DNA of 32,000 nt from Mycolicibacterium smegmatis (GCF_001457595.1 NZ_LN831039.1:3840001-3872000); one strand, 5' to 3'; shown: positions 7,617 to 32,000, counted from the first letter of the stretch. Notes: generated by a model not told the origin, from the letters alone. Translations and numbers: made by a program.

Positions 7617-8603
7617 ATGAGTACACCGACAAAAACCAACAAACGCTCGAGCCTGACGAAGTACGAGGCGATCGGCTCGACCGGAGACCCGACGACCGCC
7701 GAGTCGTTGATCGTGGCGACCGAGTACGAGTCGTTGATCGTGGCGACCGAGTACGAGTCGCCGAACGGCCTGGATCTCAACAACACCGACCCGGACCAAC
7801 GCCGAGGTCGCCGCGCGTGGGTTGGTCGAACATGCCGAGCCCGGATCGACCGGTTCTGAGGAGGACGAGTCCGCGCCCGCGCTGCTCGACGCCATCGTCG
7901 GAAGCTATCCGGAACTCGAAGAGGTCGCCGAGGTCATCATCGGCGCCGACAACCGGGTCCGCGTCGCCAACACCACCGTGTACCCGTGGCGGGCCATCTG
8001 CGCACTGCAGATCACCGCCGCCGACAACCGCCGATTCATCGGGACGGGGTGGCTGATCAGCCCGCGCACCGTGATCACCGCCGGGCATTGTGTCTACATG
8101 CACGACGCGGGCGGCTGGGCCAGGTCGATCAAGGTGATCCCGGGCTGCAACGACGGCAGCGAGCCGTTCGGAAGCTACACCGGAACCGTGCTCCGCAGCG
8201 TCACCGGATGGACGTCAAGCAAGAACCGCGAACACGACTACGGTGCGATCATCCTGCCGTCCTCGTCACGTCCGGGAGGGCAGACCGGAACGTTCGGCCT
8301 CGCGGTGAGAAACGATGGGTTCCTGATGAATTCGGCACTCAACCTGTCCGGCTATCCCGGTGACAAGGGCGGCCGCCAGCAGTGGTTCATGGCGCAGCCC
8401 CCAAGCGGGTGTCGGACCGGGTGATCACCTATGACATCGACACCATGGGCGGGCAGAGCGGCTCACCGGTCTGGGTGCTCGAAAACGGCCAGCGTTACGG
8501 GGTCGGAGTGCACACCAACGGGAGTTCCTCCGGTAACTCGGCCACCCGCATCAACACCGCCGTGTTCAACAACATGGTGAACTGGAAGAACGCGGGGCTC
8601 TGA
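7617..8603 (+). pseudogene. Trypsin-like serine protease (S1 family, V8/Glu-endopeptidase-like), interrupted by one certain and one probable frameshift; no signal peptide
   Basis: Three ORF pieces. Frame 3, 7617-7859: ATG with a GAAGGGA SD, MSTPTKTNK.... Frame 1, to 8424: catalytic His TAGHCVY, Asp in EHDYGAI, GYPGDKG. Frame 3, 8382-8603: catalytic Ser GGQSGSPVW. The second shift maps to a C5 run at 8398-8402; one extra C would read ...AQPPKRVSDRVITYDIDT. The first shift (about 7797-7822) is inferred because frame 1 has no start before a weak TTG at 7822. Confidence 0.7.
7701..7760 (+). repeat. Perfect 27-bp tandem duplication (2.2 copies) inside the protease N-terminal region
   Basis: GAGTCGTTGATCGTGGCGACCGAGTAC at 7701-7727 and 7728-7754, then GAGTCG. 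It is in frame and encodes ESLIVATEY twice. Confidence 0.95.
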
Positions 8604-8610
8604 AATCTCC

Positions 8611-8853
8611 GTGGTCATCGTTGTTTTCGAGGATTCCGCCGGTCGCCCGCTGGCTGATGCCGTGGTCAGCATCGCCAGTGCGCCCGGCGAGATCCGCGAT
8701 ATCGGCATGGTCACCGACGAGCACGGCGAGATCGCGCTCGGTGACGCCGACGATGGGATCTACGATTTCGCGGTGTTCTCGGCCGGTACGTCACACCGTG
8801 TGTCGGCCCGGATCACCGGTTCGGATTCGCGGGTCACCGTCGTCGTGCAGTGA
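8611..8853 (+). CDS. Small beta-sandwich protein (carboxypeptidase-regulatory-like / Ig-like pattern), 80 aa
   Basis: GTG start 8 nt after the protease stop. The pattern VVIVVFEDSAGRPLADAVVSI...TDEHGEIALGD..DGIYDFAVFSAG...VTVVV resembles CarboxypepD_reg-type domains. Confidence 0.5.
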   Translation: MVIVVFEDSAGRPLADAVVSIASAPGEIRDIGMVTDEHGEIALGDADDGIYDFAVFSAGTSHRVSARITGSDSRVTVVVQ

Positions 8854-8875
8854 CGTCGCGCGTTCGCCAGACCCG

Positions 8876-9772
8876 TCACGTCGCGACATGTAGCAGCTCG
8901 CTCAGCCCGGTGCGGTGCATCATCTCGGCCTTCAACCGGTCAAGCACCGTGAACCCGACCTGGCCGCCGTCATCGGACGGGTCGACATGCACGCGGAAGG
9001 GCCGCTTGCCGAACGGGGCGTCTACGACCGCGACGACCGCGTCGGCCACGGTGGTGGGATCGGCCTCCGGTGGGACCAACTCGTTGAACGCCTTCTGGAT
9101 GCGCTCCCCGTAGCCGGTATATGGGCCCGCCTCGTACGCGGCGGCCACATCCTCATCCCCCGGCACAGCGGCATTCGCAAACTGATTGGTGCCGGACGTG
9201 AAGGCCCCTGGCACGATGATGGACGTTTCGACGCCCCACAGCGTCAACTCCCGGGCGTAACTGACCGCCAACGCATCCATCGCGGCCTTCGCGGCGAAGT
9301 ACGGTCCCAGATACGGTGGCGTGCCCCCGGCCGCACTGCTGCTCGACATCCACAGCAACAGCCCGCGGCGCCGGGCGCGCATGTGCGGCAGCACTGCACG
9401 GTTGACGCGCTGGGTGCCGACGACATTGATGTCGTACAACTGGGCCATCTGCTCGGCGGTGAACGCCTCGGCGGGGCCGAACGACATATGCCCGGCGTTG
9501 TGCAGGACCACGTCGACCCGCCCCGACTCCCCCAGCACGTGGTCGATCGCCGCATTCACCGACTCCTGGGAGCCGACGTCGAGTTCCACCGACCGCAGAT
9601 CCACGCCGTTCGTCTGCGCGAAGCCGGCGATGGCAGCCACCTGCGCCGCGTTGTGTCCGGCCGTGCCACGCATCGAGGCGTAGACCGTGTACCCGGCCAT
9701 GGCCAGCGCCTCGGCCGAGATCCGGCCGAATCCACTTGCCGCACCGGTGATCAGGACGACATTCGGGGTCAC
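8876..9772 (-). CDS. Short-chain dehydrogenase/reductase (SDR)
   Basis: N-terminal Rossmann motif VVLITGAASGFG, NAG motif (LHNAGHM), and YxxxK (YFAAKAA). The GTG start overlaps the upstream SDR stop (GTGA). Confidence 0.85.
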   Translation of the reverse strand: MTPNVVLITGAASGFGRISAEALAMAGYTVYASMRGTAGHNAAQVAAIAGFAQTNGVDLRSVELDVGSQESVNAAIDHVLGESGRVDVVLHNAGHMSFGPAEAFTAEQMAQLYDINVVGTQRVNRAVLPHMRARRRGLLLWMSSSSAAGGTPPYLGPYFAAKAAMDALAVSYARELTLWGVETSIIVPGAFTSGTNQFANAAVPGDEDVAAAYEAGPYTGYGERIQKAFNELVPPEADPTTVADAVVAVVDAPFGKRPFRVHVDPSDDGGQVGFTVLDRLKAEMMHRTGLSELLHVAT

Positions 9773-10548
9773 GCCGAGGCACCGTGCTGTGCGTGCGGGT
9801 CCGCGGCGTTCAAGATCGACACCACGTGGTCGTAGTCGCCGCGGGCCTCGCCGTAGCGCAGGAACTTCGCCTGCTCGACCAGGATCTCGTGGGCATCCGG
9901 TTCGGCTTCGAGCAAGGTCATCACGTCGGCGATGAAAACGTCGAGCGGCACGCCGTTCTCGTCCTCCTCGTGTCCGGGCATCAGTTGTGTGCGCACAGAC
10001 GGCGGCACCAGTTCCACGACCTTCACACTGGTGTCCGCGAGCTGCATGCGGATCGATTCGCTGAGCATGTGGATGGCGGCCTTGGAGGCGTTGTAGGTGG
10101 GCGTCACGCCCAGCGGTGTGAAGGCCAGACCTGAACTCACGGTGACGATCGTGGAATCCGGCTGCGCCTGAAGATGTTCGACGAACGCCGCGATCAATCT
10201 GATGGGTCCCAGCACATTCGTCTCGACGGTGGCCTCGGCCGTGGCCAGGAAGGTCTCCGGCTGGTGCCAGTCCTCGACGCGCATGATCCCGGCCATGGTG
10301 ACCAGGACGTTGAGGTCGGGGTGGTCGCTCAGCACCTGGTGTGCGGCGGCCGCGATGCTGGCGGGATCGGTCGTGTCGATGACGACGCCTCCCAGGTCGG
10401 GGTGCTCGGCGGTGATCCTGTCCAGCTCGGGGGTCCGGCGCCCGCCGATGATGACGGTGTTGCCCTTGTCCCGTAGTGCCAATGCCAGTGCCAGACCGAT
10501 GCCGCTGGTGGATCCAGGGATGAAGATGGTGTTTCCTGAGATCTTCAC
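9769..10548 (-). CDS. Short-chain dehydrogenase/reductase (SDR)
   Basis: IFIPGSTSGIGLALA glycine motif, VSSGLAF, and YNASKAA catalytic YxxxK. Confidence 0.85.
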   Translation of the reverse strand: MKISGNTIFIPGSTSGIGLALALALRDKGNTVIIGGRRTPELDRITAEHPDLGGVVIDTTDPASIAAAAHQVLSDHPDLNVLVTMAGIMRVEDWHQPETFLATAEATVETNVLGPIRLIAAFVEHLQAQPDSTIVTVSSGLAFTPLGVTPTYNASKAAIHMLSESIRMQLADTSVKVVELVPPSVRTQLMPGHEEDENGVPLDVFIADVMTLLEAEPDAHEILVEQAKFLRYGEARGDYDHVVSILNAADPHAQHGASA

Positions 10549-18436: not shown

Positions 18437-19033
18437 CTACTCGCTGGATGGCGCGGCAAGACTAGTGCGTACCCGGCGGCGTCCTCGATGCAGGCGGGAC
18501 ATCACCGTGCCGATCGACACGCCCGTGGCCTCGGCGACCTGCTTGTAGGACAGCCCCACCACGTCCGCGTAGTAGATGGCCATCCGGTAGGTCTCGGGCA
18601 ATGCCCGGATCGCCGCGGTGAGCCGTCCGTCGGGAATGGACTCCAGCACGGCGGCCTCGGGGGTGCGCCACGGATGAGTCCGGCAGTCGGCCGGTGCCTC
18701 CTGGTAGAAGTCCGCGACGAGCAGCTCAGGAGGCCGGCGTGACCGGAGACGATGGCTGTCGACCCAGGCGTTGTGCATGATCCGGTGCAGCCACGCCGTG
18801 AGATTGGTGCCCTCGCGAAAAGTCCCGAACCCGGCGAACGCCCGCAACATGGTGTCCTGAAGAAGATCTTCGGCATCCTGGCGTGTGCCGGTCAGGTGCA
18901 GCGCCCCGATGAACAGGCGACCCTGCAACGGAAGTGTCTCGCGCTCGAAGCGGACGACGAGGTCCGGATCGGTCGGTGGTGATGGGGTCGGGTTGCGCGG
19001 CGATGCTGTCGGTTCGGCGAGTGGAGTGATCAC
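18437..19033 (-). CDS. ECF (sigma-70 family) RNA polymerase sigma factor, SigH-like
   Basis: Region 2: DAEDLLQDTMLRAFAGFGTFREGTNLTAWLHRIMHNAW. Region 4: LPETYRMAIYYADVVGLSYKQVAEATGVSIGTVMSRLHRGRRRV. From memory, this closely resembles the mycobacterial SigH pattern. Confidence 0.85.
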   Translation of the reverse strand: MITPLAEPTASPRNPTPSPPTDPDLVVRFERETLPLQGRLFIGALHLTGTRQDAEDLLQDTMLRAFAGFGTFREGTNLTAWLHRIMHNAWVDSHRLRSRRPPELLVADFYQEAPADCRTHPWRTPEAAVLESIPDGRLTAAIRALPETYRMAIYYADVVGLSYKQVAEATGVSIGTVMSRLHRGRRRVRTSLAAPSSE

Positions 19034-19099: not shown

Positions 19100-20200
19100 G
19101 ATCCGCTCTCACTCGCATCGGCAGGTGCCTAGCGGAAGTGGCTAGGTGTAGGAGGGCACGACGTTGGTGACGCCTACACGGAGCCTAGAGACTGGTGGCT
19201 GGCCGCCGGATCCACTGTGCGGCCGGTGGTAGTTGTAATGGATGTTCCAGATGGCTATTGCGGATGAGCGGGCGTCTTCGTTGGTGAACTCCCGAGCGTA
19301 GAGCAGTTCCTCCGCCAGGATGCGTTGGTAGCGTTCCACTTTCCCGTTATGGCGAGGCGTGTACGGCTTCGTGCGTTGGTGCCGAGCCCGCTGGCCGATG
19401 CTTCGGGCGAAGTCGCCGGACCGGTAGCAGGCTCCGTTGTCGGTGACGATTCGGTGGATGTGGATGATGCCGTGGGCGGCGAACCAGACCTTCGCTCGGG
19501 CGAGAAAGGTAGCCGCGGTCGCGCCCTTCTCGTCAGCGAGCGGCTCGGTGTAGGCAAGCCGGGAGTATCCGTCGATCGCCGAGTGCAGGTAGGTATAGCC
19601 AGCCTTGGCGCCGGCGGTCTTGGCGCGGTCGGCCGCGCGGTTCTGCGCGCTATCGCGGCCATGGATGCGCCATCCGCCGCCATCGGGGATGCGACCAACT
19701 TTCTTGACGTCGAGGTGGATCATATGGCCGGGCCAGCGGGCGGTGATCCGGCCCGGCTGGCGGTTAGATTCACCGTTCGGGTCGAGGAACCTTCGGTGAT
19801 TGAGGCCGAGGTGTGCCAGGTGCCGCGTGACGGTACGGCGGTTGAGCTGGATGCCCTGCTCGGACAGGTCATGTGTAATCCGCTGGGCTGACCACTTTTT
19901 CTCACGCCGACTGGTCTCGATCAGGGCGACTACGTGCGCTGGCGTTGCGGTGGGGCTGTGATGAGGCGTGGAGGAACGGTCGTGTAGGCCGAGTTCGCCG
20001 TGGCGTCGCCATCGATTGACCCACTTGCTCGCGCAGGCACGAGAGATGCCCATTTCCTTGGCTACGTGGGCGATGGGTCTGTTGCGGCATCGCTCGATGA
20101 GCCGATGGCGACCTTCGATCGTCAGCGGCGCGTTCTTGTGGGTCACTTTGTCGGACTGGGCGCGGATGCACGGCGCGCGGTGTCGCGGCTGTCGATGGCT
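19100..20200 (-). mobile_element. IS481-family insertion sequence (boundaries approximate, inverted repeats not confidently resolved)
   Basis: A single transposase ORF fills about 1 kb, as in IS481-type elements. The best candidate ends (19115-19143 vs reverse complement of 20141-20169) match at only about 14 of 29 positions, giving a 1055-bp element. No target-site duplication was found. Confidence 0.55.
19142..20146 (-). CDS. IS481-family transposase (HTH + DDE/rve integrase core)
   Basis: N-terminal HTH (IAHVAKEMGISRACASKWVNRW). DDE core: HLDVKK, LHSAIDGYSRLAY, TDNGACYRS, KPYTPRHNGKVERYQRIL. Confidence 0.9.
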   Translation of the reverse strand: MTHKNAPLTIEGRHRLIERCRNRPIAHVAKEMGISRACASKWVNRWRRHGELGLHDRSSTPHHSPTATPAHVVALIETSRREKKWSAQRITHDLSEQGIQLNRRTVTRHLAHLGLNHRRFLDPNGESNRQPGRITARWPGHMIHLDVKKVGRIPDGGGWRIHGRDSAQNRAADRAKTAGAKAGYTYLHSAIDGYSRLAYTEPLADEKGATAATFLARAKVWFAAHGIIHIHRIVTDNGACYRSGDFARSIGQRARHQRTKPYTPRHNGKVERYQRILAEELLYAREFTNEDARSSAIAIWNIHYNYHRPHSGSGGQPPVSRLRVGVTNVVPSYT

Positions 20201-20721: not shown

Positions 20722-21762
20722 TCATGACAAAGAATTGAGGCACGGCATGGCGAGGGCGGTGAAGTCGCCATCGTCGGCTGATCGGATGGTGGCCGGTTGA
20801 TCGGCGCCACGGAGGTCGAGCATCAAGTCGCTGCCCAGTGCGTGGCTGATCGCCGGGTACAACGTGGTCAGCTCGAACCAGACGGTCAGGTCGGGGCCGG
20901 ATGCGTTTCCGTCGAGTTCCACCGCGCAGTCAGGCAGCACCACGCTCGGCTGGCTGGCAGCTATTCGAAGGCCGATCCTCTCCGGAGCCTGTTGCTCCAG
21001 TGCCTTGAGCAGGTCTTTCTTCTCGACGGTGACGCGATGTGTCACAGCGGGGAGCGAACTGAACATGAGCTTGTAGTCAGGAAAGGCCTCAGTCAGCAGA
21101 CGACAGTGCGCGACGGTGCTGTCGACCATGCGCAGGCCCAGGGTCTGTTCGTTTGCTTCCAGCGTCACGACGGGGCTTCGTCTGAGCCGCGAGGCTACGG
21201 CCCGAAGATCGTCTCCGGCGAGCGTCCCCGCCCAGGATGTGGCAGAGGGTTGGCTGGGCACCAGCGTCCGCGTGGCCAAGCGGTAGCGATCGGTCGCGGT
21301 CAGCGAGATGGTATCGGGATTCGATTCCAGGCGTACACCATTCAGGATGGGTAAGTCGGCATTGTGCGTCGTGGTAGCCACGACCTGGTCGATCGCTGCT
21401 GCGAGGACCGGGCCCGAGAGCGTGCACAGATTGAGGTGAGCCGCTTCGCCAAGGGAGGCCTTGAGCGTCGCGGCAGCCCGTTGCATCCCGGCTGCCTCGG
21501 CGGCAACCTTGGCTACGTGATCGTCGATCATTTGCGCCGCCTCCTGAGTGCCGGCGGAGAAGAATCTGCCGATGGCGGGCAGCGACATCCCGATCTCGCG
21601 CAGCTGACGCAACTGCAAGGCGCGGTCCAGCTGCTCCTCGCTATAGAGCCGGTATCCCGTGATTCGGTCGACCTGCTCGGGATTAAGCAAACCTGCATCG
21701 TCGTAGAACCGCAAAGCGCTGGCGGTCAGTCCGGCGAGCTTGGCGAACGCACCGATCGACAT
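20722..21762 (-). CDS. MerR-family HTH fused to two DNA polymerase III beta-clamp-like domains
   Basis: N-terminus MSIGAFAKLAGLTASALRFYDDAGLLNPEQVDRITGYRLYSEEQL is a MerR HTH. The rest carries clamp-like motifs: LPILNGVRLE..ISLTATDRYRLA, RLLTEAFPDYKLMF and C-terminal FTALAMPC. Compare E. coli DnaN LPILGNLLLQ..LSLTGTDLEMEM, KLVDGRFPDYRRVLP and YVVMPMRL (from memory). Start taken at ATG 21762; the ORF is open to TTG 21801. Confidence 0.75.
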   Translation of the reverse strand: MSIGAFAKLAGLTASALRFYDDAGLLNPEQVDRITGYRLYSEEQLDRALQLRQLREIGMSLPAIGRFFSAGTQEAAQMIDDHVAKVAAEAAGMQRAAATLKASLGEAAHLNLCTLSGPVLAAAIDQVVATTTHNADLPILNGVRLESNPDTISLTATDRYRLATRTLVPSQPSATSWAGTLAGDDLRAVASRLRRSPVVTLEANEQTLGLRMVDSTVAHCRLLTEAFPDYKLMFSSLPAVTHRVTVEKKDLLKALEQQAPERIGLRIAASQPSVVLPDCAVELDGNASGPDLTVWFELTTLYPAISHALGSDLMLDLRGADQPATIRSADDGDFTALAMPCLNSLS

Positions 21763-21939
21763 CAACTCTGGGTTGGTCACCCGAACATCGTCAGGCCTCA
21801 ACCAGCTTGAATGTCAACCGCGACGCGATCCGTCAACAACGTCTTGCCCCGCAACAGCTAGGCTTGCCGCTCCCGCATTTATCGCGTGCTCCGGCACGTG
21901 CCCTCACTGTTTGCGCCGTCGAGCAGCGTGCCCCTCGAG

Positions 21940-22474: not shown

Positions 22475-23249
22475 GTGACCCAAGGTTCAGGACGACTTGC
22501 AGGAAAATCGGCGGTGATCACCGGCGCCGCGTTCGGCATCGGCCGGGCGAGCGCTGTGCTCTTCGCGCGCGAGGGCGCGCGGTTGACGGTGACCGACATC
22601 CAAGGCGAGCCACTGCTGACGTTCGCCGACCAACTGCGCGACACCGGGGCCGGAGGTCGAGGCGATCATCGGCGACGTCTCGGTCGAGGACGATGCGCGC
22701 CGGATGATCGCGGCGGCAACTGAGCGTTTCGGCCGCCTCGATGTGCTGGTGGCCAACGCCGGCATCATCCCACTCGGCGACGCGCAGGAGGTGACGACCG
22801 CCGACTGGGACGACGTGATGGCCATCGACGGGCGCGGCATGTTCCTCACGTGCAAGTTCGGGATCGAGGCGATGTTGGCGACCGGCGGCGGCGCCATCGT
22901 CTGCTTGTCCTCGATCTCCGGTCTGGCCGGGCAGAAGCGGCAGGCGGCTTACGGGCCTGCCAAATTCATCGCCACCGGGTTGGCAAAACACCTCGCGGTC
23001 GAGTGGGCCGACCGGGGCATCAGGGTCAACGCCGTCGCCCCGGGCACGATTCGAACCGAGCGGGTCAGGCAGATGCAGGAAGAGCCGGGCGGCGCGGAAT
23101 ACCTGGCGACGGTCGAGGCCATGCACCCGATGGGTCGCGTCGGTGAGCCTGACGAAGTCGCCAGCGCCATCGCCTTTCTCGCGTCCGACGACGCGTCCTT
23201 CATCACCGGCGCCGTGCTGCCCGTCGACGGGGGTTACCTGGCGCAGTAG
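22475..23249 (+). pseudogene. SDR (FabG-like 3-oxoacyl reductase family) with a 1-nt frameshift
   Basis: Frame 2 from GTG 22475: GKSAVITGAAFGIGRASAVLFAREGARLTVTD...LRDTGA. An extra G at about 22652 moves the reading to frame 3: EVEAIIGDVSVEDDARRMIAAATERFGRLDVLVANAG...YGPAKFI...VLPVDGGY. Confidence 0.75.
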
Positions 23250-23320
23250 CGTCACTCGCAATTCGGGGGCACGGTCGGCGGTGCCACGGGTGACACTTGA
23301 TCACATGAGCGAGCAGTTGC

Positions 23321-23362
23321 AGAGATATCCAGAGATATCCATTGCCCCTCAACGAGATATCC
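23321..23362. promoter_or_regulatory. Three copies of GAGATATCC (two in perfect 10-bp tandem) upstream of the DUF1232 gene
   Basis: AGAGATATCC at 23321-23330 and 23331-23340; CGAGATATCC at 23353-23362. Each contains the palindrome GATATC. They lie 50-90 nt upstream of ATG 23413. Confidence 0.35.
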
Positions 23363-23412
23363 CGGATGAGTCGATACGATGTCCACATGCTCCGCATCGT
23401 TGAACTCGGCTG

Positions 23413-23850
23413 ATGACACACCTCTGGGGCACACTCATCGGGGTCGCGGTCGGCCTGCTCATCGTGTGGGCAGCGCTGCTGATCGCACTGGCCCTGGCAC
23501 GCCCCAAGGACCTCAGCGTCACCGATGCACTGCGATTGCTGCCCGACACAGTGGTTTTGATGCGACGCCTGGCCGCCGATCCGCAACAGCCCCGCGGTGT
23601 CCGGGTCCGTCTGCTCCTGCTGCTGGTCTACCTGATCCTGCCGATCGACCTCGTGCCCGATTTCATCCCTTTTCTCGGCTACGCGGATGACGCCATCGTC
23701 GTTGCAGTCGCGCTGCGCTCGGTCGCCCGGCGCGCGGGGTACGGCGCCCTCGACAAGCACTGGCCGGGCACCCCGGAAGGACTCGAATCCGTTCGCCGTC
23801 TCGCCGGCATCCCGAGTCCACCCGAACCCGGAGAATCTCCGGAACAATAG
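23413..23850 (+). CDS. DUF1232 / YkvA-family membrane protein
   Basis: 145 aa with an N-terminal TM and the signature ILPIDLVPDFIPFLGYADDAIV. Confidence 0.8.
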   Translation: MTHLWGTLIGVAVGLLIVWAALLIALALARPKDLSVTDALRLLPDTVVLMRRLAADPQQPRGVRVRLLLLLVYLILPIDLVPDFIPFLGYADDAIVVAVALRSVARRAGYGALDKHWPGTPEGLESVRRLAGIPSPPEPGESPEQ

Positions 23851-23884: not shown

Positions 23885-25054
23885 CTAGTCGTCGTCGGCG
23901 GCGCCAGGGACGGCCGGTGCCTCGATACCCGGATGTTGTGCGCCGTCGTTGGCGCCCGAGGCGTCGTCGTCGCCGGCAATGAGCCCGAACACCGAGAAAC
24001 TCACGATCCAGTAGGCGACGTACCCCACCAGCAGCACCACTCCGTGCCAGCGGCGCAGGTGTCCGGTGAACAGCGCGTACGCCGCGAATCCGTTGATCAC
24101 GATGAGCGCAGGCAGATGCCAGCTGAAGACCTCCGGGGTGATCAACAGCGCACCGCCCAGCAGGGCGATGATGCCGACCTTCGCGGTCACCGAGAACACC
24201 ACACTGCCGATGACGTTGCCGACCCCGATCGCGGGCGCACCCCGCCGGAAGGGCTCGACGGTCAGGAAGATGTCCTCCAGGGACAGCACCAGTGTCGCGA
24301 TCGTCGCGCCGAAGACCGTGCCACCGATCGCGTATTCGTCGACGATGCCCTCGGTGCCCTCGGCCATGACCCAGGCACCGAGCACGACGCCGACCAACGC
24401 GACAAGCGCGAGCAGCAGCAACGCCCACCCAGGACGCTTGTTCGCCTTCGCCTTCGCCACATCACCGGTCTCGTAGAGACTGCCGCCGCCGCCCGGCCGA
24501 CCACCACCACCGGAGTTCCTGGCGCCGCTGCCGACGAGTTCGCGACTGTGCGCCACTTCCACGGCGTTCTCGGCTTCCACCACCTCCAGCACCTCCGCAC
24601 TGCGGAAGGTCGGCACGGCCCGCCGGGACTCGCGGTAGGCGATGTAGGCGATGAACACCACGAACAACGCGATGAGCACCACCCCGGTCACCCGGCTCAA
24701 CCCGCCGAGCAAAGCAGGCACGATCAACACGAGAGGTGCGATGGCGAACAGCGCGATGTAGTCCTTCGGGATCTCCACCGGCCTGGGCGCGAGGATGGCG
24801 GCCAGCGCGAGCACCAGGCCGGTCAGCGAGACGACGGTTCCGAAGATGACTCCGAGCGCGATGTCTTCGCTGCCCTCCAGGTTGAGCACCACGCCGAAGG
24901 CCAGATCGTCGAATTCGATGCCCGTGAACAGGATTGCGAGCAGAAAGAGCGATATCGCCAGGCCGCGCGCCGCTCCGACCAGATAGGTGATGAGTTTCTC
25001 GGCGCTGTAGATCAACAGGGCCGCACCGACGGTGAAGGCAATGATCGACGTCAT
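23885..25054 (-). CDS. CaCA-family (sodium/calcium exchanger-type) cation antiporter
   Basis: 389 aa from ATG 25054 (MTSIIAFTVGAALL). There are two multi-TM halves separated by a charged Gly-rich loop. Each half carries an acidic alpha-repeat-like motif (FTGIEFDDLAFG and LSLEDIFLTVEP). The ORF-track N-terminal extension to 25216 overlaps the miniprotein gene and is rejected. Confidence 0.75.
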   Translation of the reverse strand: MTSIIAFTVGAALLIYSAEKLITYLVGAARGLAISLFLLAILFTGIEFDDLAFGVVLNLEGSEDIALGVIFGTVVSLTGLVLALAAILAPRPVEIPKDYIALFAIAPLVLIVPALLGGLSRVTGVVLIALFVVFIAYIAYRESRRAVPTFRSAEVLEVVEAENAVEVAHSRELVGSGARNSGGGGRPGGGGSLYETGDVAKAKANKRPGWALLLLALVALVGVVLGAWVMAEGTEGIVDEYAIGGTVFGATIATLVLSLEDIFLTVEPFRRGAPAIGVGNVIGSVVFSVTAKVGIIALLGGALLITPEVFSWHLPALIVINGFAAYALFTGHLRRWHGVVLLVGYVAYWIVSFSVFGLIAGDDDASGANDGAQHPGIEAPAVPGAADDD

Positions 25055-25065
25055 CGGCAAACCTC

Positions 25066-25272
25066 TCAGTGTTGGTGTACTTCGCAGGCGCAGTACATGT
25101 TTCGACACGTGTAGCAGGCAGGCATGCCCTGGCAGCGCGGGCAGACGTCGCAGCTGACCGGCTCGGTGTGCCGGTGGGCATCCACGGAGTTGTACGATTC
25201 GCCGCAGTGGTAGCACGGCGGACGCCCGCTGTTGTCGTCCAATTCGCGAAGCTGATCGGTGGCCGAGTTCAC
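25066..25272 (-). CDS. Cys/His-rich miniprotein, 68 aa (zinc-ribbon or metallothionein-like)
   Basis: The GTG start overlaps the pqqE TGA (GTGA). Sequence: MNSATDQLRELDDNSGRPPCYHCGESYNSVDAHRHTEPVSCDVCPRCQGMPACYTCRNMYCACEVHQH, with 9 Cys and 5 His in the last 49 residues. Hand-counted GC3 is about 82 percent, which is coding-like. It ends 11 nt before the antiporter ATG. Confidence 0.5.
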   Translation of the reverse strand: MNSATDQLRELDDNSGRPPCYHCGESYNSVDAHRHTEPVSCDVCPRCQGMPACYTCRNMYCACEVHQH

Positions 25273-26399
25273 CGTCGTACCTGCAGGGGCAGCTGCGTCC
25301 GGGTGCGTCCGGGATTCGGTCGGGGAATCATCACACCGTCGTGCGGCAGCGTCGGGTCGTTGGCTGCCGCCACCGCCGTCTCGACCAGCCCGTGATCCGG
25401 GGAGAGATGACAGACGGGGTCGGTGCGGGCAGCGTCGCCGGTGAGCGCGAAAGCCTGGCAACGACAACCGCCGAAGTCGATCTCGCGACGGTCGCAGGTG
25501 CGGCACGGGTCGGGCATCCAGTCGTCGCCGCGGAACTGCCGGAAGAGTGGCGACTGCATCCAGATCCACTCCAGTGAATGCCTACGTACGTTGGTACCGG
25601 GCAGGCTCAGGCCGCGCGCCAACTCGTGGGCCGCTGGGCACGGCAGGGCTTCGCCGTTCGGCACCACGGTGAACTGGCGGCGTGCCCAGCCGGCCATGCA
25701 GGGTTTGGGATACTTCTCGTAGTAGTCGGGGATGACGTAGATGATCTCCATCCGGTTCCCGAGCCGGCCTCGAGCCGCCCGCACCACCGTCTGCGCGCGC
25801 TCCAATTGGTCTCTGCTGGGCAGCAATTCGGCGCGGTTGCGCCCCGCCCAGCCGTAGTACTGCGTGTTGGCCAGCTCGATCCGGTCGGCCTCCATCACGG
25901 CTGCCATGTCGAGGATGGCGCCGATCCGATCGATGTTCTGCCGGTGCAGCACCACGTTCAGCGTGAGCGGCCAACCCAGCTTCTTCACCAGCCGCGCGAC
26001 GTCGTGTTTGCGCTCGAACGAGGCGGTGCCGGCTATCCGGTCGGACACCTCTGGCTGATCGGCCTGAATGCTGACCTGGACATGGTCGAGCCCCGCGTCG
26101 CGCAGCTGCTCGGCGCGACGGGTCGAGAAGCCGAGCCCGCTGGTGATCAGATTGGTGTACATGCCGAGCCCGTTGGCACACCGCACGAGGTCGACGATGT
26201 CGTGGCGCTGCATGGGCTCGCCGCCCGAAAGGTGTACCTGAAGTACGCCCAGCTCGGCGGCCTCGGCGAACACCCTTTGCCATTCCACGGTGGACAGCTC
26301 GTCGCGATAGTTCTGCAGCGCAACGGGATTGGAGCAGTAGGGGCAGTGCAGCGGACAGGCATAGGTGAGCTCGGCGAGCAACGCATACGGCCTATCCAT
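25269..26399 (-). CDS. pqqE: PqqE, radical SAM/SPASM PQQ biosynthesis enzyme
   Basis: [25 protein letters not shown] (CxxxCxxC) and a SPASM-type Cys cluster near the C-terminus. ATG 26399 overlaps the pqqD stop by 8 nt. Confidence 0.9.
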   Translation of the reverse strand: MDRPYALLAELTYACPLHCPYCSNPVALQNYRDELSTVEWQRVFAEAAELGVLQVHLSGGEPMQRHDIVDLVRCANGLGMYTNLITSGLGFSTRRAEQLRDAGLDHVQVSIQADQPEVSDRIAGTASFERKHDVARLVKKLGWPLTLNVVLHRQNIDRIGAILDMAAVMEADRIELANTQYYGWAGRNRAELLPSRDQLERAQTVVRAARGRLGNRMEIIYVIPDYYEKYPKPCMAGWARRQFTVVPNGEALPCPAAHELARGLSLPGTNVRRHSLEWIWMQSPLFRQFRGDDWMPDPCRTCDRREIDFGGCRCQAFALTGDAARTDPVCHLSPDHGLVETAVAAANDPTLPHDGVMIPRPNPGRTRTQLPLQVRR

Positions 26400-26670
26400 G
26401 ATCGATCTCCATCCCGTGTTTGGCGACGAGGTCGGCGACGAAGCGTCGGACGTCGCCCTCGGCGATCTCGTCGTAGCGACTGCCGAGCTCGACCTGGATC
26501 TCCGCGATGGTCCGCCGGGCGTCACACAGCTCCACGATCGCCACGCCGGTGTCGTTGAGCACCCAGATCGTCTCCGGCGAGAGCAGGGCGTACTGCCCGC
26601 GCGCGGCGTCGAACCTCATCCGGACGTGGGGAGCCAGCCGCGGCCGGGCGGCGTCGTCAGCGATTTCCAT
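26392..26670 (-). CDS. pqqD: PqqD, PQQ biosynthesis peptide chaperone
   Basis: 92 aa from ATG 26670 ([42 protein letters not shown]...). It overlaps the pqqC end by 14 nt. Confidence 0.85.
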
Positions 26671-27373
26671 AAGCCTGGTCGATCGCATCGAGCATGCTCC
26701 ACAGCACGTCGCACTTGAAGGACAAGGCCGACAGCGCGGCCGTCTGGGTTTCCTGCGTGACGCAATGCCGTCGCACCACCTCAAGACCGTGTTCGGAGTC
26801 GCGGGGCGCCTGGGTGATGCGAGATCTGAAGTAAGAGAGTTCTTTCGGGTCGATCCAGGTGTAGTGACGTTCGAACGCCGCGAGCCGCTCGGCCATCAGG
26901 TCGGGTGCGAACAGCTCGGTCAGCGACGAGGCCACCGCCTCCAGCCATGGCCGGGTGCGGGTGAAGTTCACGTAGGCGTCGACGGCGAAGCGCACGCCCG
27001 GCAGCAGGTGTCGTGCGTCTTCGACCTCCGCCCTGGTCAAACCGACCGCTTCGGCCAGTCGCAGCCACGCCTCGATTCCCCCGGTTCCTTCGGTCGTGCC
27101 GTCGTGGTCGATGATTCGCTGGACCCAACGGCGCCGTATCTCACGGTCCGGGCAGGTGCTGAGGATCGCTGCGTCTTTCCGGGGGATGTTCACCTGGTAG
27201 TAGAAGCGGTTGGCCACCCACCCGCGGATCTCCTCGGGGCTGCACTGCCCGGTGTTCATCCGACGGTGGAAGGGATGCAGGTGGTGGTAATCCTTGACGT
27301 GCTCGCGAAGCGCTTCCTCGAACTCGTCGGGCGTCAGTGCCTGGGTTACTGCTCCTCGCGCCAGCGGTGCCAT
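26657..27373 (-). CDS. pqqC: PqqC, pyrroloquinoline-quinone synthase
   Basis: 238 aa: [46 protein letters not shown]. The SD GAGGAG spans the pqqB stop. Confidence 0.9.
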
Positions 27374-27382
27374 GGTTGCTCC

Positions 27383-28285
27383 TCAGATCTCCAGCTCGAG
27401 CCCGTCAGCGGCGACCTCGATGCCGTGGCGGTCGAGAATCCGCCGCTCCGGGGAGTCCTCGAGCAGGACGGGGTTGGTGTTGTTGATGTGGATGTAGACC
27501 TTGCGGTCGATCGGCAGCGATGCCAGCAGCTCGAGGCTGCCGCCGGCACCGGCGATCGGGACATGTCCCATCTCGCGTGATGTCTTGCCTGCCAGGCCGA
27601 GCCGGGGCATCTCGTCGTCGCGCCAGCAGGTGCCGTCGATCAGCAGGCCCGAGCAGTCGGCCAGTTCCTCGAGGACCTCCGGGGTCAGCCGTTGCACGCA
27701 CGGCAGGTACACCAGGCTGCGGCCACTACCTGCGTCGGTGAGTCGGTAGCCCACCACCCGGCCATGTGTCGCGGCTCCCGGGAATCGCATGGACTTGTCG
27801 GTGGGTACGTCGAACGCGCGGTACGACAACCCGTGTGATCCGTCGTCGAGCGGGACCTCGACCCCGGGCACCACCGGCTGCCACTTGACCGGGCAGTACG
27901 CCTCCAGTGTCCTGAGTACCCCGGTCCCTGTGGTGAGGGTTTCGTGCACCGACTCGGTCGCGTGGACTTCGAGACCACGCCCTTCCCGCATCAGCAGCAG
28001 TCCGAGGGTGTGGTCGAGTTCGGCGTCGGTGAGCAGCACAGCCTGAAGCCGGACCACTCTGCCTTCGTCGGGGTGCAGATCCGGGAAAGCCTCGATCTGG
28101 GATTGGATGTCCGGCGAGGCGTTGAACAAAAACCACTGTTTCCGATCAGCACTCACCGCGATCGACGACTGTGAGCGTGCCACGCAGGGTCGTGCGCCGG
28201 TCCGCACCGCACGGCACTGGGGACACCCGCAGTTCCACTGCGGAAACCCGCCGCCCGCTGCCGATCCGAGCACCCTCACCCACAC
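27383..28285 (-). CDS. pqqB: PqqB, metallo-beta-lactamase-fold PQQ biosynthesis protein
   Basis: MWVRVLGSAAGGGFPQWNCGCPQC, a typical PqqB N-terminus. 300 aa, GTG start. Confidence 0.9.
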   Translation of the reverse strand: MWVRVLGSAAGGGFPQWNCGCPQCRAVRTGARPCVARSQSSIAVSADRKQWFLFNASPDIQSQIEAFPDLHPDEGRVVRLQAVLLTDAELDHTLGLLLMREGRGLEVHATESVHETLTTGTGVLRTLEAYCPVKWQPVVPGVEVPLDDGSHGLSYRAFDVPTDKSMRFPGAATHGRVVGYRLTDAGSGRSLVYLPCVQRLTPEVLEELADCSGLLIDGTCWRDDEMPRLGLAGKTSREMGHVPIAGAGGSLELLASLPIDRKVYIHINNTNPVLLEDSPERRILDRHGIEVAADGLELEI

Positions 28286-28366: not shown

Positions 28367-28480
28367 CTAGTCGTCGCCGTCCAGGACGGCCACGTATGCG
28401 GTCACCTCGGCGGAAACCCGGATCTCGGCGAACGTGGGACGCTCCCACTTCTGCAGGGCGCCTGCGGACTTCTTCTCCAT
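28367..28480 (-). CDS. pqqA: PqqA, PQQ precursor peptide (37 aa; below the ORF-track size cutoff)
   Basis: My own translation of the minus strand: MEKKSAGALQKWERPTFAEIRVSAEVTAYVAVLDGDD. It has the conserved W..P...EI.V..EVT.Y pattern (E-x3-Y crosslink pair). ATG preceded by GGAAGAGAG. Confidence 0.85.
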   Translation of the reverse strand: MEKKSAGALQKWERPTFAEIRVSAEVTAYVAVLDGDD

Positions 28481-28529: not shown

Positions 28530-30215
28530 TCAGTCGGGCAGTGTGAAGGCGATCAACGCGCTGCCGTGGCCCGCGCCGAGCATCCCGGGGAGGATGCCCT
28601 CGAGCCAGCCGCCCCAGCCGACCGGTACGACGACGTACTGCTTGCCGTCGACACTGTAGGTCGAACAACTTCCGTGATGCCCACTGCCACAGTTGAATTC
28701 CCACAACTTCTCGCCGGTGTTGGCATCCAGTGCGGCGAACTCGCCGGTCGGGGTGCCTGCGAACACCAGGTCTCCCGCGGTGGCGAGAACCGATGCGGCC
28801 ATCGGGTAGTCGAGACGCCAGCGCCACTTCTCCTCACCGTGGGAGTCGAACGCGCTCACCGAGCCCGCCATGTCGTCGATGTCCACCTGAACGGCAGCAC
28901 CCCAGTACGGGATACCCTCCCGGAACTCGCGTCGACGGCGGGTGGCCGTGGCGCCCACGTCGGCGACGGGAACGTAGAACATGTCCGTCTTCGGGCTGTA
29001 CGCCGCGTGCGTCCATTCCTTCGCCCCGGCCGGTCCCGGGTAGAAGTGGACGGGCTCACCCTCCTTGTCGGGATACTTGCGCGGCGTCACCTTGCCGTCG
29101 CGGGTGATGACACCCCAGTCGATCCGATCCACGAACGGGGTGACGTGCTGCAGTTCCCCGTTGGTGCGGTCCAGCACGAAGAAGTAGCCGTTCTTGTCGA
29201 AGTGGCCGAGCAGCTTCTTGCCGTCCCGCTCGAAGAGCGTCATCTCCATCGTGGAGTCGTAGTCCCACAGGTCGTGCGGGGTGAACTGGTAGTGCCACTT
29301 GATTTCTCCGGTGTCGACGTCGAGCGCGACGACGGAGTCGGTGTAGAGGTTGTCGCCCTCGCGCACTGCACCGTCGAAGTCGGGCGCCGGGTTACCGGTG
29401 CCGGCGTAGTACAGGTTCAGCTCGGGGTCGTACGTCCCGGTCACCCAGTGGTTGGCACCACCACGCTGCCAGGCCTCGCCGTCGGCAGGCCAGGTCTCCG
29501 AGCCCGGCTCCCCCGGCTTGGGAACGGTGTAGGTGCGCCACAGGTGCTCGCCGGTCTTGAGGTCCCAGCAGTCGATGTGTCCACGCACGCCGAACTCGCC
29601 ACCGGCGCTGCCGGTGATCAGCGTGTTCTTGACCACCAGCGGAGCCAGGGAGGCGCTCTCACCGGCCCGTACGTCGCCGATCGTCTTCTCCCAGACCATC
29701 TCTCCGTTGCTGGCGTCCAGCGCGAGCAGGTGGGCGTTGGGTGTCACGAAGAAGACCTTGCCGTCGGCCACCGCGCAGCCACGGTTGACGTTCCCGCAGC
29801 ACAGCGACACGTCGAAGGGCACTGCGTGCTTGTAGCGCCAGAGCTGCTGGCCCGTTTTCGCGTCCAGCGCCCAGAACCAGCCGTCCCACCCGGTGACGTA
29901 CATGACGCCGTCCACGACCAGCGGGCACGCCTCGAACGCATAGGTCGACGCCCCCGCCATGTGCCCGGAGGCCCCTGCCTGGAACACCCACGCCGGACCG
30001 ATGCGCTTGACGTTCTCGGTGTTGATCTGGTCAAGGAGGCTGTACCGCTTGCCGTCATAGGCCCCGTAATAGGTGAGCCAGTTGTGCGACTCCGCCCGCG
30101 CATTGAGGAGGCGGTTGTAGTCGACATCGGTTGTCACCGCGGGCGCGGTTCCCGGAATGGGGCTCAGCGCCGACTGATTGATCGCTTCGCCGGCGTCGAC
30201 GTATTCAACGGTCAT
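28530..30215 (-). CDS. PQQ-dependent alcohol/methanol dehydrogenase, XoxF-like (D-x-D type), no signal peptide
   Basis: 561 aa eight-bladed propeller quinoprotein. Key features: vicinal Cys SLCCGNVNRG (C139-C140), GGEFGVRG (E207), GTGNPAP (N275) and PHDLWDYDS (D318, D320; codons 29262-29264 and 29256-29258). ATG 30215 is preceded by a strong SD (AGGAAGGG). The N-terminus MTVEYVDAGEAINQSALSPIPG is not hydrophobic. Confidence 0.9.
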   Translation of the reverse strand: MTVEYVDAGEAINQSALSPIPGTAPAVTTDVDYNRLLNARAESHNWLTYYGAYDGKRYSLLDQINTENVKRIGPAWVFQAGASGHMAGASTYAFEACPLVVDGVMYVTGWDGWFWALDAKTGQQLWRYKHAVPFDVSLCCGNVNRGCAVADGKVFFVTPNAHLLALDASNGEMVWEKTIGDVRAGESASLAPLVVKNTLITGSAGGEFGVRGHIDCWDLKTGEHLWRTYTVPKPGEPGSETWPADGEAWQRGGANHWVTGTYDPELNLYYAGTGNPAPDFDGAVREGDNLYTDSVVALDVDTGEIKWHYQFTPHDLWDYDSTMEMTLFERDGKKLLGHFDKNGYFFVLDRTNGELQHVTPFVDRIDWGVITRDGKVTPRKYPDKEGEPVHFYPGPAGAKEWTHAAYSPKTDMFYVPVADVGATATRRRREFREGIPYWGAAVQVDIDDMAGSVSAFDSHGEEKWRWRLDYPMAASVLATAGDLVFAGTPTGEFAALDANTGEKLWEFNCGSGHHGSCSTYSVDGKQYVVVPVGWGGWLEGILPGMLGAGHGSALIAFTLPD

Positions 30216-30228
30216 TCTTGTTCCCTTC

Positions 30229-30699
30229 CTAGGGTCGCGGCTGATCGGGACGGTCGAGACGGGCCTCCGGTGGCACTTCGCCGAGAACGACGATCGCGGC
30301 GGTCAGACCCCGGCCTTCGTCGTTGCCGCCCGGCGAGCTGTACCAGTAGTAACCCGGGCCGTCGAGGTGCAGGACCGCCTTGCCCTTCGAGTGGTTGAGG
30401 AGCCAGAGGAACTTCCTGTCCCCGTTGCTCGGGAACAGCGCCGCGTGTGTGTTCTTGTCGTCGTTGATGACCGTCAGCTCGATGAAACCGCCGTGCGGCA
30501 TCACCAGAATCGCCGGATCCCAGGCGATCTCGTCCTCTTTGATCCGGATCGTCGCCTCCATCGTGCCATCGGCCCGTTCGGTCGCGGTGGCGATGGAACC
30601 AGTGCCCAGGACCCGGCCGAGCGCTGCGTGATTCTGCTTGTCCAAGCCGAGTTCGCGCAGTAGGTCGGATCGCTGATCTGGCTGATCTGTGACCGTCAT
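30229..30699 (-). CDS. Cupredoxin-like protein lacking type-1 copper ligands (no Cys)
   Basis: 156 aa. The pattern ATIRIKEDEIAWDPAILVMPHGGFIELTVINDDKNTHAALF ... GKAVLHLDGPGYYWYSSPGGNDEGRGLTAAIVVLG aligns by eye with cupredoxin-domain proteins (...HNF... / ...YxFxCxxPGHxxxGM). Here the Cys, second His and Met positions read S, G/N and L. The protein contains no Cys at all. Confidence 0.55.
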   Translation of the reverse strand: MTVTDQPDQRSDLLRELGLDKQNHAALGRVLGTGSIATATERADGTMEATIRIKEDEIAWDPAILVMPHGGFIELTVINDDKNTHAALFPSNGDRKFLWLLNHSKGKAVLHLDGPGYYWYSSPGGNDEGRGLTAAIVVLGEVPPEARLDRPDQPRP

Positions 30700-31114: not shown

Positions 31115-32000
31115 TCAGGTTCGGTCGAACAGGTCCAGGTTCATCACCTTGTCCCACGCGGAGACGAAGTCACGGACGAACTTCTCCTCAGCGTCCGCGC
31201 TCGCGTACACCTCGGAGATTGCGCGTAGCACGGGGTCTGACGCGAAGGACAGGTCGACCCGGCTCGCGATCCACGTGACCTCGCCGGTGCGCCGGTCGCG
31301 ACCCTCGTATGCCGCCGTCCAGTCGGCGGTGTCCGCCCTCGGTGTCCACTCGATGTTCACGTCGAGCAGGTTGACGAAGAAGTCGTTGCTCAGCGCGCCC
31401 GGCGATGCGGTGAACACACCCAGCGGGGATCCGCCGTGGTTGGCGCCGAGCACACGCAAACCGCCGAGCAGTACCGTCATCTGCGGCGCAGTCAGGGTCA
31501 ACTGGCTCGCACGGTCGACGAGCAGATGCTCCGGAGGTGGTCGGTTGCCCTCGCCGACGTAGTTGCGGAATGCGTCCGCGGTGGGTTCGAGTGCGGAGAA
31601 CCACTCGATGTCGGTCCACTCCTGTGGTGCGTCCGTACGCCCCAGCCGGCAGGGGACCTCGATGGGGTGACCGGCTTCGGCGGCGGCATGTTCGACCGCC
31701 GCGCAGCCGCCGAGCATGATCAGATCGGCAGCGGAGATCTGTTTGCCCCCGCGATGGGAATCGTTGAACCGTCGGCGAATCCGCTCCAGTCGGTCCAGGA
31801 CGATCGCCAGCTTCTCCGGCTCGTTGACCGCCCAGCTCCGCTGCGGTTCGAGACGGATTCGCGCGCCGTTCGCGCCGCCGCGCTTGTCACTGTTCCGGAA
31901 CGTCGAAGCCGAGGCCCACGCCGTGGTGACGAGTTGCGATACCGACAGTCCCGAACCGAGGATCTCACGCTTGAGTGCGGCGACGTCGTCGGCGTCCGCG
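31115..32000 (-). CDS. katG: Catalase-peroxidase KatG, C-terminal part (5' end outside the window)
   Basis: The frame is open to the window edge: ...[54 protein letters not shown]...[16 protein letters not shown]...[21 protein letters not shown], the typical KatG C-terminal domain. Confidence 0.9.

Follow-up and report, generated by a model that had tools for sequence, protein, structure and literature searches.

A Cys/His-rich mini-protein family tied to the pyrroloquinoline quinone alcohol dehydrogenase cassette of Actinobacteria

What is encoded by a reading frame of only 68 codons that lies between pqqE, a gene of pyrroloquinoline quinone (PQQ) biosynthesis, and a cation transporter gene in Mycolicibacterium smegmatis, and to which of its neighbors does the product belong? 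The question arises from a stretch of 32,000 nucleotides (GCF_001457595.1, NZ_LN831039.1:3840001-3872000), which we call the window and from whose first letter positions are counted. An initial annotation of this stretch had proposed a Cys/His-rich metal-binding mini-protein, translationally coupled to pqqE, that might be a metal chaperone or sensor or a second peptide substrate of the PqqE enzyme. The comparative analysis described here shows that the mini-protein gene is real and conserved, and that its constant partner is the module of a PQQ-dependent alcohol dehydrogenase (ADH) rather than PqqE; we tentatively read the product as a small zinc-binding accessory of that enzyme. The gene in question is the following:

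25066-25272, minus strand: mini-protein gene, 68 codons plus stop, GTG start (translation, homologs, purifying selection, and public gene call)

The translation is VNSATDQLRELDDNSGRPPCYHCGESYNSVDAHRHTEPVSCDVCPRCQGMPACYTCRNMYCACEVHQH, closed by the stop codon. Its first 16 residues form an acidic and variable N-terminus, and residues 17-68 a Cys9His2 core in which ~23% of the residues are Cys or His. The pattern CYHC-x17-CDVCPRC-x5-CYTC-x4-CAC, with an HRH and a terminal EVHQH, had been read directly from the DNA and is found exactly in the translation, while the G+C content at third codon positions, given earlier as ~82 percent, was computed to be 0.81. The protein has neither a signal peptide nor a hydrophobic segment [maximum Kyte-Doolittle(11) 0.35]; because of this and its net charge of -4, it is expected to be soluble and cytoplasmic.

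Chance open frames are common in GC-rich DNA, and this one actually stays open for 167 codons further upstream inside pqqE, as a spurious open reading frame (ORF) well might. The comparative data nevertheless refute this explanation, to which we give practically no chance. In codon alignments of 31 genomic loci the median pairwise ratio of non-synonymous to synonymous substitution (dN/dS) was 0.155, with dS averaging 1.2 (394 locus pairs), and the minority bases were distributed 173/173/463 over the three codon positions, favoring the third. The synonymous-biased substitution pattern asked of a conserved reading frame is thus present across these loci. The Cys/His columns are kept across at least five orders, and the gene stays intact while neighboring genes change. 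In addition, the GTG start in the window lines up with the ATG starts of homologs, and public gene callers report the identical 68-aa product with the same start. The ORF is a conserved gene far above chance, as had been supposed.

A protein search with the mini-protein returned 39 homologous protein clusters of 57-81 aa (E-values of 1e-17 to 1e-28), and a broader profile extended the family to 87 clusters. In the alignment of homologs, C20, C23, H35, C41, C44, C47, C53, C56, C61, C63, and H66 are invariant, so that eleven soft-metal ligands (Cys9His2) are fixed within 47 residues, while the first ~16 residues vary freely. Six columns that are not ligands (R17, P51, T55, R57, M59, and Y60) are invariant as well. 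Searches of Pfam, NCBIfam, and PHROGs with the mini-protein and 15 family members gave nothing significant, permissive thresholds included; the mini-protein itself had no Pfam match even at E <= 10 and no NCBIfam match at E <= 0.01, and the models for HNH (PF01844), metallothionein (PF02069), rubredoxin (PF00301), ferredoxins, and Wbl (PF02467) were among those not matched. No description of the mini-protein was found in the literature. The M. smegmatis cassette MSMEG_3721-3727 is mentioned in passing (PMC6529628, PMC3023750), and no experimental study of the actinobacterial cassette was found in the searched library beside such passing mentions, which concern M. smegmatis only. These negative results agree with the earlier remark that no such component was known from the described pqq operons. 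A small Cys/His metal-binding module is familiar as a general kind; what is new is that this one founds an undescribed family with a strict tie to a Gram-positive quinoprotein cassette.

Several members (RJT76252.1, TFD69590.1, WP_144745541.1, AIJ24615.1, and others) carry the NCBI/UniProt name "recombination activating protein 1," for which no analysis here gives any support and which we regard as a misannotation. The oldest-looking of these records is AIJ24615.1 of A. methanolica 239. Since that record is 95 aa long as annotated, its start was probably called too far upstream.

When one genome per GTDB species was scanned for the mini-protein, 30 loci were obtained, in Mycobacterium, Mycolicibacterium, Rhodococcus, Nocardioides, Marmoricola, Intrasporangiaceae, Arthrobacter, Paenarthrobacter, Pseudarthrobacter, Psychromicrobium, Cryobacterium, Solirubrobacteraceae, and Prauserella; individual look-ups extended the range to Amycolatopsis, Pseudonocardia, and Streptomyces mutabilis, and A. 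methanolica 239 also holds a member. At all 41 of the 41 loci of the subfamily, the mini-protein gene lies at the 3' end of a PQQ ADH cassette, whose order is KatG, a protein resembling MSMEG_3727 (M3727), ADH, then pqqABCDE and an MntP or CaCA transporter where these are present, and finally the mini-protein. The order (KatG)-M3727-ADH-pqqABCDE-(transporter)-mini-protein is found in 33 of them. An MntP-family membrane protein (PF02659) is encoded between pqqE and the mini-protein in 26 of these 33 pqq-containing loci and a CaCA transporter in two, whereas in the window, L001, and L011 the CaCA gene stands downstream of the mini-protein gene. In the last two, L005 and L025, the mini-protein gene comes after pqqE, and no transporter was matched between the two genes or beyond them. 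As side observations on cassette architecture, in L004, L019, and L028 the ADH-M3727 pair (and KatG) occurs once more, in inverted orientation and less than 10 kb from the cassette, and in L028 the sole ADH is on the strand opposite to the pqq genes.

At the remaining eight loci the mini-protein gene lies directly 3' of the ADH gene (gaps of 70-670 nt), and no pqq or radical S-adenosylmethionine (SAM) gene was found within 8-10 kb. Pfam-annotated gene calls in L032, L035, and L036 (Amycolatopsis, Pseudonocardia, and S. mutabilis) place the pair among MimR_N/LytTR regulators and genes of the ribulose monophosphate (RuMP) cycle, namely hexulose-phosphate synthase in all three, and phosphohexulose isomerase, transketolase, and FBPase in L032 and L035, so that the module there looks like a methylotrophy island without nearby pqq genes. 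RPE is also listed among the RuMP-cycle genes near the pair in these loci. Judging from the eight loci without pqq or radical SAM genes, the mini-protein tracks the dehydrogenase module and not PqqE: the linkage to the cassette holds, and the dehydrogenase module is the constant partner.

The reverse test, in which metagenome contigs were searched with the ADH, gave 80 loci, among which the M3727-ADH pair is near-universal. Wherever the ADH was at least 81% identical and enough downstream DNA was available (L039, L040, L049, L051, L054, L055, and L057), the mini-protein was present. In ~20 adequately long loci with an ADH of 70-76% identity, by contrast, neither tblastn nor a profile hidden Markov model over six-frame ORFs detected a mini-protein; in this sister clade an MntP protein or, by eye, an NRAMP-like transporter follows pqqE. 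The existence of this clade indicates that the mini-protein is a clade-restricted accessory and not indispensable to the enzyme type.

The cassette in the window is read from the minus strand, and its other genes, in the direction of transcription, are as follows:

31115-32000, minus strand: katG (catalase-peroxidase), C-terminal part, the gene running off the window end (TIGR00198/NF011635; frame continuous to the edge)
30229-30699, minus strand: MSMEG_3727-like PQQ-associated protein, 156 aa, no Cys (translation; homologs carry PF23509)
28530-30215, minus strand: PQQ-dependent ADH of the methanol/ethanol family (TIGR03075, 649 bits)
28367-28480, minus strand: PqqA precursor peptide, 37 aa, MEKKSAGALQKWERPTFAEIRVSAEVTAYVAVLDGDD (read from the sequence), with the E-x3-Y motif EVTAY, which we take to be the PqqA signature
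27383-28285, minus strand: pqqB (TIGR02108, 380 bits)
26657-27373, minus strand: pqqC (TIGR02111, 342 bits)
26392-26670, minus strand: pqqD (TIGR03859, PF05402; gene call mapped from L119)
25269-26399, minus strand: pqqE, radical SAM/SPASM enzyme, 376 aa (TIGR02109, 513 bits; PF04055/PF13186; gene call)
23885-25054, minus strand: CaCA-family (Na+/Ca2+ exchanger type) cation transporter, last gene of the operon (PF01699, TIGR00367)

The identities given earlier to the two immediate neighbors stand, since PqqE is a true member of its equivalog family (its 513 bits exceed the cutoff of 381) and the transporter belongs to the Na/Ca-exchanger family. Beyond the CaCA gene lie the convergent plus-strand genes DUF1232 and SDR; the minus-strand "orf214" (23203-23847) and "orf247" (22518-23261) are wrong-strand readings of these two genes and were discarded. 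Further away, a minus-strand ORF (20722-21801) combines an N-terminal MerR helix-turn-helix with similarity to the central domain of the DNA polymerase III beta subunit (DnaN), and it is adjoined by genes for an IS481-family transposase and an extracytoplasmic function sigma factor (19142-20146 and 18437-19033, minus strand).

How, then, did the mini-protein gene come to overlap pqqE? Both junctions in the window are as first described: the start codon GTG (25272-25270) and the pqqE stop TGA (25271-25269) share TG in a GTGA arrangement, and the ATG of the transporter at 25054 lies 11 nt past the mini-protein stop. A direct 4-nt overlap with pqqE is, however, found in only 4 of the 41 loci (the window, L001, L005, and L011), while in 24 of the 26 loci with a preceding MntP gene the mini-protein start overlaps that gene's stop by 1 or 4 nt, the remaining two having gaps of +7 and +11 nt. 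In L001, the nearest relative of the window, the mini-protein opens with GTGAACTCTCTCTTCGCTCTG (VNSLFAL), which is identical to the opening 21 nt of the MntP-like gene of L003 and L040; there, that gene itself forms a GTGA overlap with the stop of pqqE. Of this MntP-like start, the window mini-protein keeps GTGAACTC (VNS). Because the L001 start equals the beginning of the MntP-like gene, we conclude that the body of this gene was lost by in-frame deletion and its start grafted onto the mini-protein; what is now the GTGA junction was formerly that between pqqE and MntP, and it is secondary and historical. In the lineage of the window, the MntP-like gene was deleted in frame and the CaCA transporter added downstream. 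The specific link to PqqE that had been drawn from this coupling is not supported, and of the two features that the initial annotation had proposed to check in related loci, the Cys pattern is conserved and the position after pqqE is not general.

Two fragments may be remnants of such rearrangements. In L001, a truncated second C-terminus of the mini-protein (ending in PVSCPRRKTMPACRTCRNMYCACEVHQH and a stop) lies at 8164-8268, after the CaCA gene and before an RpiB-like gene, and is probably the scar of the event that removed MntP and brought CaCA; no such C-terminal remnant was found in the window. In L015, a short pqqE-like tblastn match between the CaCA gene (about 8557-9645) and the mini-protein gene (10001-10192) may be a duplicated 3' piece of pqqE.

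These observations bear directly on a role in PQQ biosynthesis, whether as a second Cys-rich substrate of PqqE in the manner of SCIFF/ranthipeptide precursors or as a small electron donor to PqqE. SPASM enzymes often act on Cys-rich peptides, and the overlap with the pqqE stop at four loci fits such a role. On the other hand, the overlap is secondary, the PqqE present is the full equivalog accompanied by its own PqqA and PqqD, the eight ADH-mini-protein loci have no pqq or radical SAM gene nearby, and the pqq cassettes of the sister clade do without the mini-protein. The sequence also lacks E-x3-Y (only E25-x-Y27 is present, and this Glu varies in the wider family), and its conservation is the reverse of a precursor's, with the N-terminus in the leader position least conserved and the whole 50-residue core invariant. 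We therefore consider such a helper function very unlikely. A PqqA-type precursor was rejected for the missing E-x3-Y and because co-location with the maturase and PqqD is not obligatory (8/41 loci lack it). The mini-protein does not qualify as a SCIFF/ranthipeptide precursor either: no SCIFF or other NCBIfam model for precursors of ribosomally synthesized and post-translationally modified peptides (RiPPs) was matched (E <= 0.01), and no dedicated SPASM maturase is encoded nearby, the only SPASM enzyme being the equivalog-level PqqE. The suggestion of a second PqqE peptide substrate is thus contradicted both by the eight loci and by the N-terminal position of the variable part.

What kind of protein the invariant core forms was approached through structure prediction. 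AlphaFold2 with a 76-sequence alignment gave a model with a predicted local distance difference test (pLDDT) score of 75.5 overall and 81-86 over residues 21-60, containing only one short helix; with 40 close homologs the score was 53 and the model unusable. Foldseek found no match to the model in the PDB below E = 0.8. All weak matches of sequence or fold, none of them significant, were to zinc-binding modules (HNH, LIM, RING, eS26, and C2H2).

The invariant ligand pattern, the well-predicted core, the near absence of secondary structure, and these weak zinc-module matches suggest to us a multi-zinc knot. We propose that it is an accessory subunit that docks on the ADH or on its MSMEG_3727-like partner; this is the reading we prefer, although we hold it with less than even confidence. 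Under this proposal, nine Cys and two His would wrap the chain around metal ions, two or three in number and with Zn(II) as the likeliest metal, to give a compact knot that has hardly any regular secondary structure. The knot would dock as a small subunit or adaptor on the cytoplasmic ADH or the MSMEG_3727-like protein and would serve in assembly or stabilization of the enzyme, or in its coupling to a downstream acceptor. A speculative division of the ligands would assign C20/C23/C53/C56 to a first zinc and C41/C44/C61/C63 to a second, with H35/C47/H66 as an open third site; it is based on the HNH and eS26-like alignments and on the natural variant P0052, in which C20, C23, H35, and C53 are absent together.

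An accessory of this kind would have known parallels. The MSMEG_3727 family (PF23509), MxaI, and XoxG/ExaB are likewise small cassette proteins inherited with a PQQ dehydrogenase, and the place of the mini-protein gene immediately 3' of the ADH gene in eight loci is like that of dehydrogenase accessory proteins. It has, however, no sequence relation to them, no CxxCH haem motif, and no signal peptide; it is rich in Cys and His, whereas MxaI is rich in Lys and Cys is absent from the MSMEG_3727-like protein of this cassette, and unlike the named accessory proteins it is restricted to one actinobacterial ADH clade.

Three observations weigh against this reading. The sister-clade cassettes, at 70-76% ADH identity, operate without the mini-protein; the spacing C44-x2-C47-x5-C53 also fits an Fe-S type of site; and distant relatives that share the Cys pattern are found in unrelated surroundings that resemble mobile elements. 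The last point comes from a profile search run exhaustively against 1.84 billion representatives, in which only 18 proteins matched. Two of them, P0042 (1434 aa) and P0051 (284 aa), were discarded because only their RPxCxxCG stretches (25 and 4, respectively) match the profile; they are unrelated tandem-repeat zinc-finger proteins. The credible remote members follow the pattern C-x2-C...Y...H-T-E-P-V-x-C-x(1-3)-C-x(1-2)-C-x-G-x-P-x-C-Y-x-C-x4-C-x-C-x2-H. These distant members have 53-104 aa, come from Streptomyces and Actinacidiphila, and in some cases (in the set L031, L033/L034, L037, and L038) carry an N-terminal extension of the WxxxTEFRLFEDEDP type. Their neighborhoods are varied (type I-E CRISPR-Cas, a tetratricopeptide repeat protein, FtsK/recombinase genes, and regions like integrative elements), and those of L031, L033/L034, L037, and L038 have nothing in common with the PQQ cassette or with each other. 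Because the distant relatives occupy unrelated contexts, the fold appears to be a generic module, whose ancestral role may concern nucleic acids.

Another reading is that the mini-protein is a nucleic-acid-binding zinc finger derived from HNH (beta-beta-alpha-metal) proteins, acting as a regulator of the cassette or surviving as a relic of a mobile element. In a profile search of PDB sequences, the HNH nicking endonuclease 4h9d of Geobacter came out on top with E = 0.006 (alignment A1, 40 sequences) and E = 4e-4 (A3, 76 sequences), the aligned part covering CxxCG, the invariant His, xPV, and PACxxCxN. One distant relative follows a 473-aa protein with a DHDHVTPY motif (DHDH..P..G) that is HNH-like by eye, and other relatives lie in mobile or defense-type neighborhoods. 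The match was, however, to a single HNH chain in the PDB and was gone with the third alignment (A2), and no Pfam model, those for HNH included, was hit. The likeness to the HNH/treble-clef module of G. metallireducens 4h9d extends over CxxC(G)...H-x-x-P-V...P-A-C-x-x-C-x-N, and HNH proteins bind a structural zinc through two CxxC knuckles. Compared with them, the mini-protein has six additional invariant residues (five Cys and one His), an Arg in place of the Asp before the catalytic His (here the invariant H35), and CxxCxxC in place of the middle Asn loop. The last metal ligand is not conserved, since N58, which aligns with it, is kept only in the PQQ subfamily, and the model shows no beta-hairpin and helix of the beta-beta-alpha fold; 4h9d is only at rank 15 (E = 7) in the Foldseek result. 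The strict cassette linkage over several orders also argues for a dedicated role. We take the HNH relation as a lead and not as membership, and a regulator or relic of this descent seems improbable.

The zinc-knot accessory that we prefer has to be judged together with the enzyme it would serve. The ADH starts with MTVEYVDAGEAINQSALSPIPGTAPAVTTDVDYNRLL, where no hydrophobic or twin-arginine segment was found [maximum Kyte-Doolittle(11) 0.85]; since it has no signal peptide or hydrophobic N-terminus, we predict it to be cytoplasmic. It retains the vicinal CC and a WDYD motif, of which the second Asp, as in WDFD, marks lanthanide enzymes. Among solved structures, the lanthanide-dependent PedH (6zcv, E = 6e-109) comes nearest to it, with a WDFD in alignment with the WDYD. 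The features of this ADH extend to its homologs in L001-L118. The cassette enzyme would thus be a cytoplasmic and probably lanthanide-type quinoprotein. Its gene regularly comes right after that of the MSMEG_3727-like protein, whose homologs carry PF23509, and no cytochrome c gene was found in the cassette.

According to the textbooks, PQQ-dependent dehydrogenases of alcohols and methanol work in the periplasm of Gram-negative bacteria and hand their electrons to a dedicated cytochrome c, whose genes (xoxG/exaB) often sit directly after the dehydrogenase gene. It is conceivable, then, that the mini-protein holds an Fe(Cys)4, Fe-S, or Cu center and serves as a cytoplasmic acceptor or relay for the ADH, replacing the cytochrome c (XoxG/ExaB/PedF). 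The missing signal peptide of the ADH, the missing cytochrome gene, and the position directly after the ADH gene in eight loci are all in line with this, as are the rubredoxin-like knuckles (CYHCG and CPRC), the C-x2-C-x5-C spacing, and the conservation in the cassette of KatG, which points to unusual redox chemistry. Yet no rubredoxin, ferredoxin, HiPIP, or Wbl model was matched, and the middle Cys triad drifts among distant members (C-x2-C-x2-C, C-x3-C-x-C, or C-x-C-x2-C), unlike fixed Fe-S motifs. The sister ADH clade does without the mini-protein, and the universal MSMEG_3727-like protein is a better candidate for an obligatory partner. The resemblance to rubredoxin (CxxCG and CPxC knuckles) and to Wbl proteins (C-x2-C-x5-C spacing, small size, actinobacterial origin) is further limited by more than twice the number of ligands and a non-helical predicted structure. 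A redox carrier is accordingly unlikely in our judgment, and its more definite form, a new small metal-center redox protein standing in for cytochrome cL/c550 with a cytoplasmic lanthanide-type ADH, would be rather unlikely on the sequence evidence. A c-type cytochrome was rejected outright because there is no CxxC followed by His and no hydrophobic N-terminus.

The transporters of the cassette raise another alternative. By lineage they belong to three unrelated families, namely MntP-like (e.g., L003:9450-9989), CaCA (the window gene), and NRAMP-like by eye from a GPG…MGGG N-terminus (L088:10825-12531, L107:14951-16657, and L070:7716-9281), and their recurrence suggests a shared need to move metal for the ADH. 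The katG gene adjoins the ADH module in either orientation in many loci (the window, L032, L035, L036, L039, and others), which hints that the system makes or must handle H2O2.

A mini-protein of this composition might buffer, deliver, or sense metal in the manner of a metallothionein, working with the co-encoded MntP/CaCA transporter, as had been proposed initially. It adjoins a transporter gene in 33 of the 41 loci (among them after MntP in 26, after CaCA in two, and before CaCA in three), usually with translational coupling, and its core is dense in Cys and His. The metallothioneins SmtA/BmtA (Zn4Cys9His2) and the mycobacterial MymT are cytoplasmic and of similar size (~55-residue core), and SmtA has the same count of nine Cys and two His. 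The Cys spacing differs, however, and PF02069 was not matched; the Pseudomonas metallothionein structure ranks 23 (E = 9.4) in the Foldseek result. Nor do thiolates and imidazoles make suitable ligands for the ADH metals (Ca2+ or Ln3+), and a Ca/Ln chaperone was rejected on this ground. In contrast to metallothioneins, the mini-protein has many conserved non-ligand residues, of which the six invariant ones suggest a defined interaction surface, and it is tied to a catabolic enzyme cassette and not to metal-resistance genes. Some ADH-mini-protein loci have no transporter match (e.g., L035, L051, L054, and L057; 7-22 kb of locus sequence), and cassettes with an MntP or NRAMP-like transporter but no mini-protein exist. 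We find a metal buffer, metallochaperone, or sensor doubtful.

Two statements about this family can be corrected from the present comparison: the RiPP-substrate reading, which had been drawn from one locus, is wrong, and the propagated name "recombination activating protein 1" should be dropped. The wider interest lies in the enzyme. Unlike the textbook periplasmic dehydrogenases, that of the actinobacterial cassette has a lanthanide-type active-site Asp yet no export signal, and the cassette also encodes PQQ synthesis, a catalase-peroxidase, a cation transporter, and two proteins without an assigned function. If the redox-partner reading were true, there would be a quinoprotein electron relay inside the cell of Gram-positive Actinobacteria. 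As one of only two unassigned cassette-specific components, the mini-protein is a short and tractable handle on this cytoplasmic enzyme, namely on the metal supply of the ADH, the upkeep of its vicinal Cys pair, and the disposal of its electrons in the cytoplasm.

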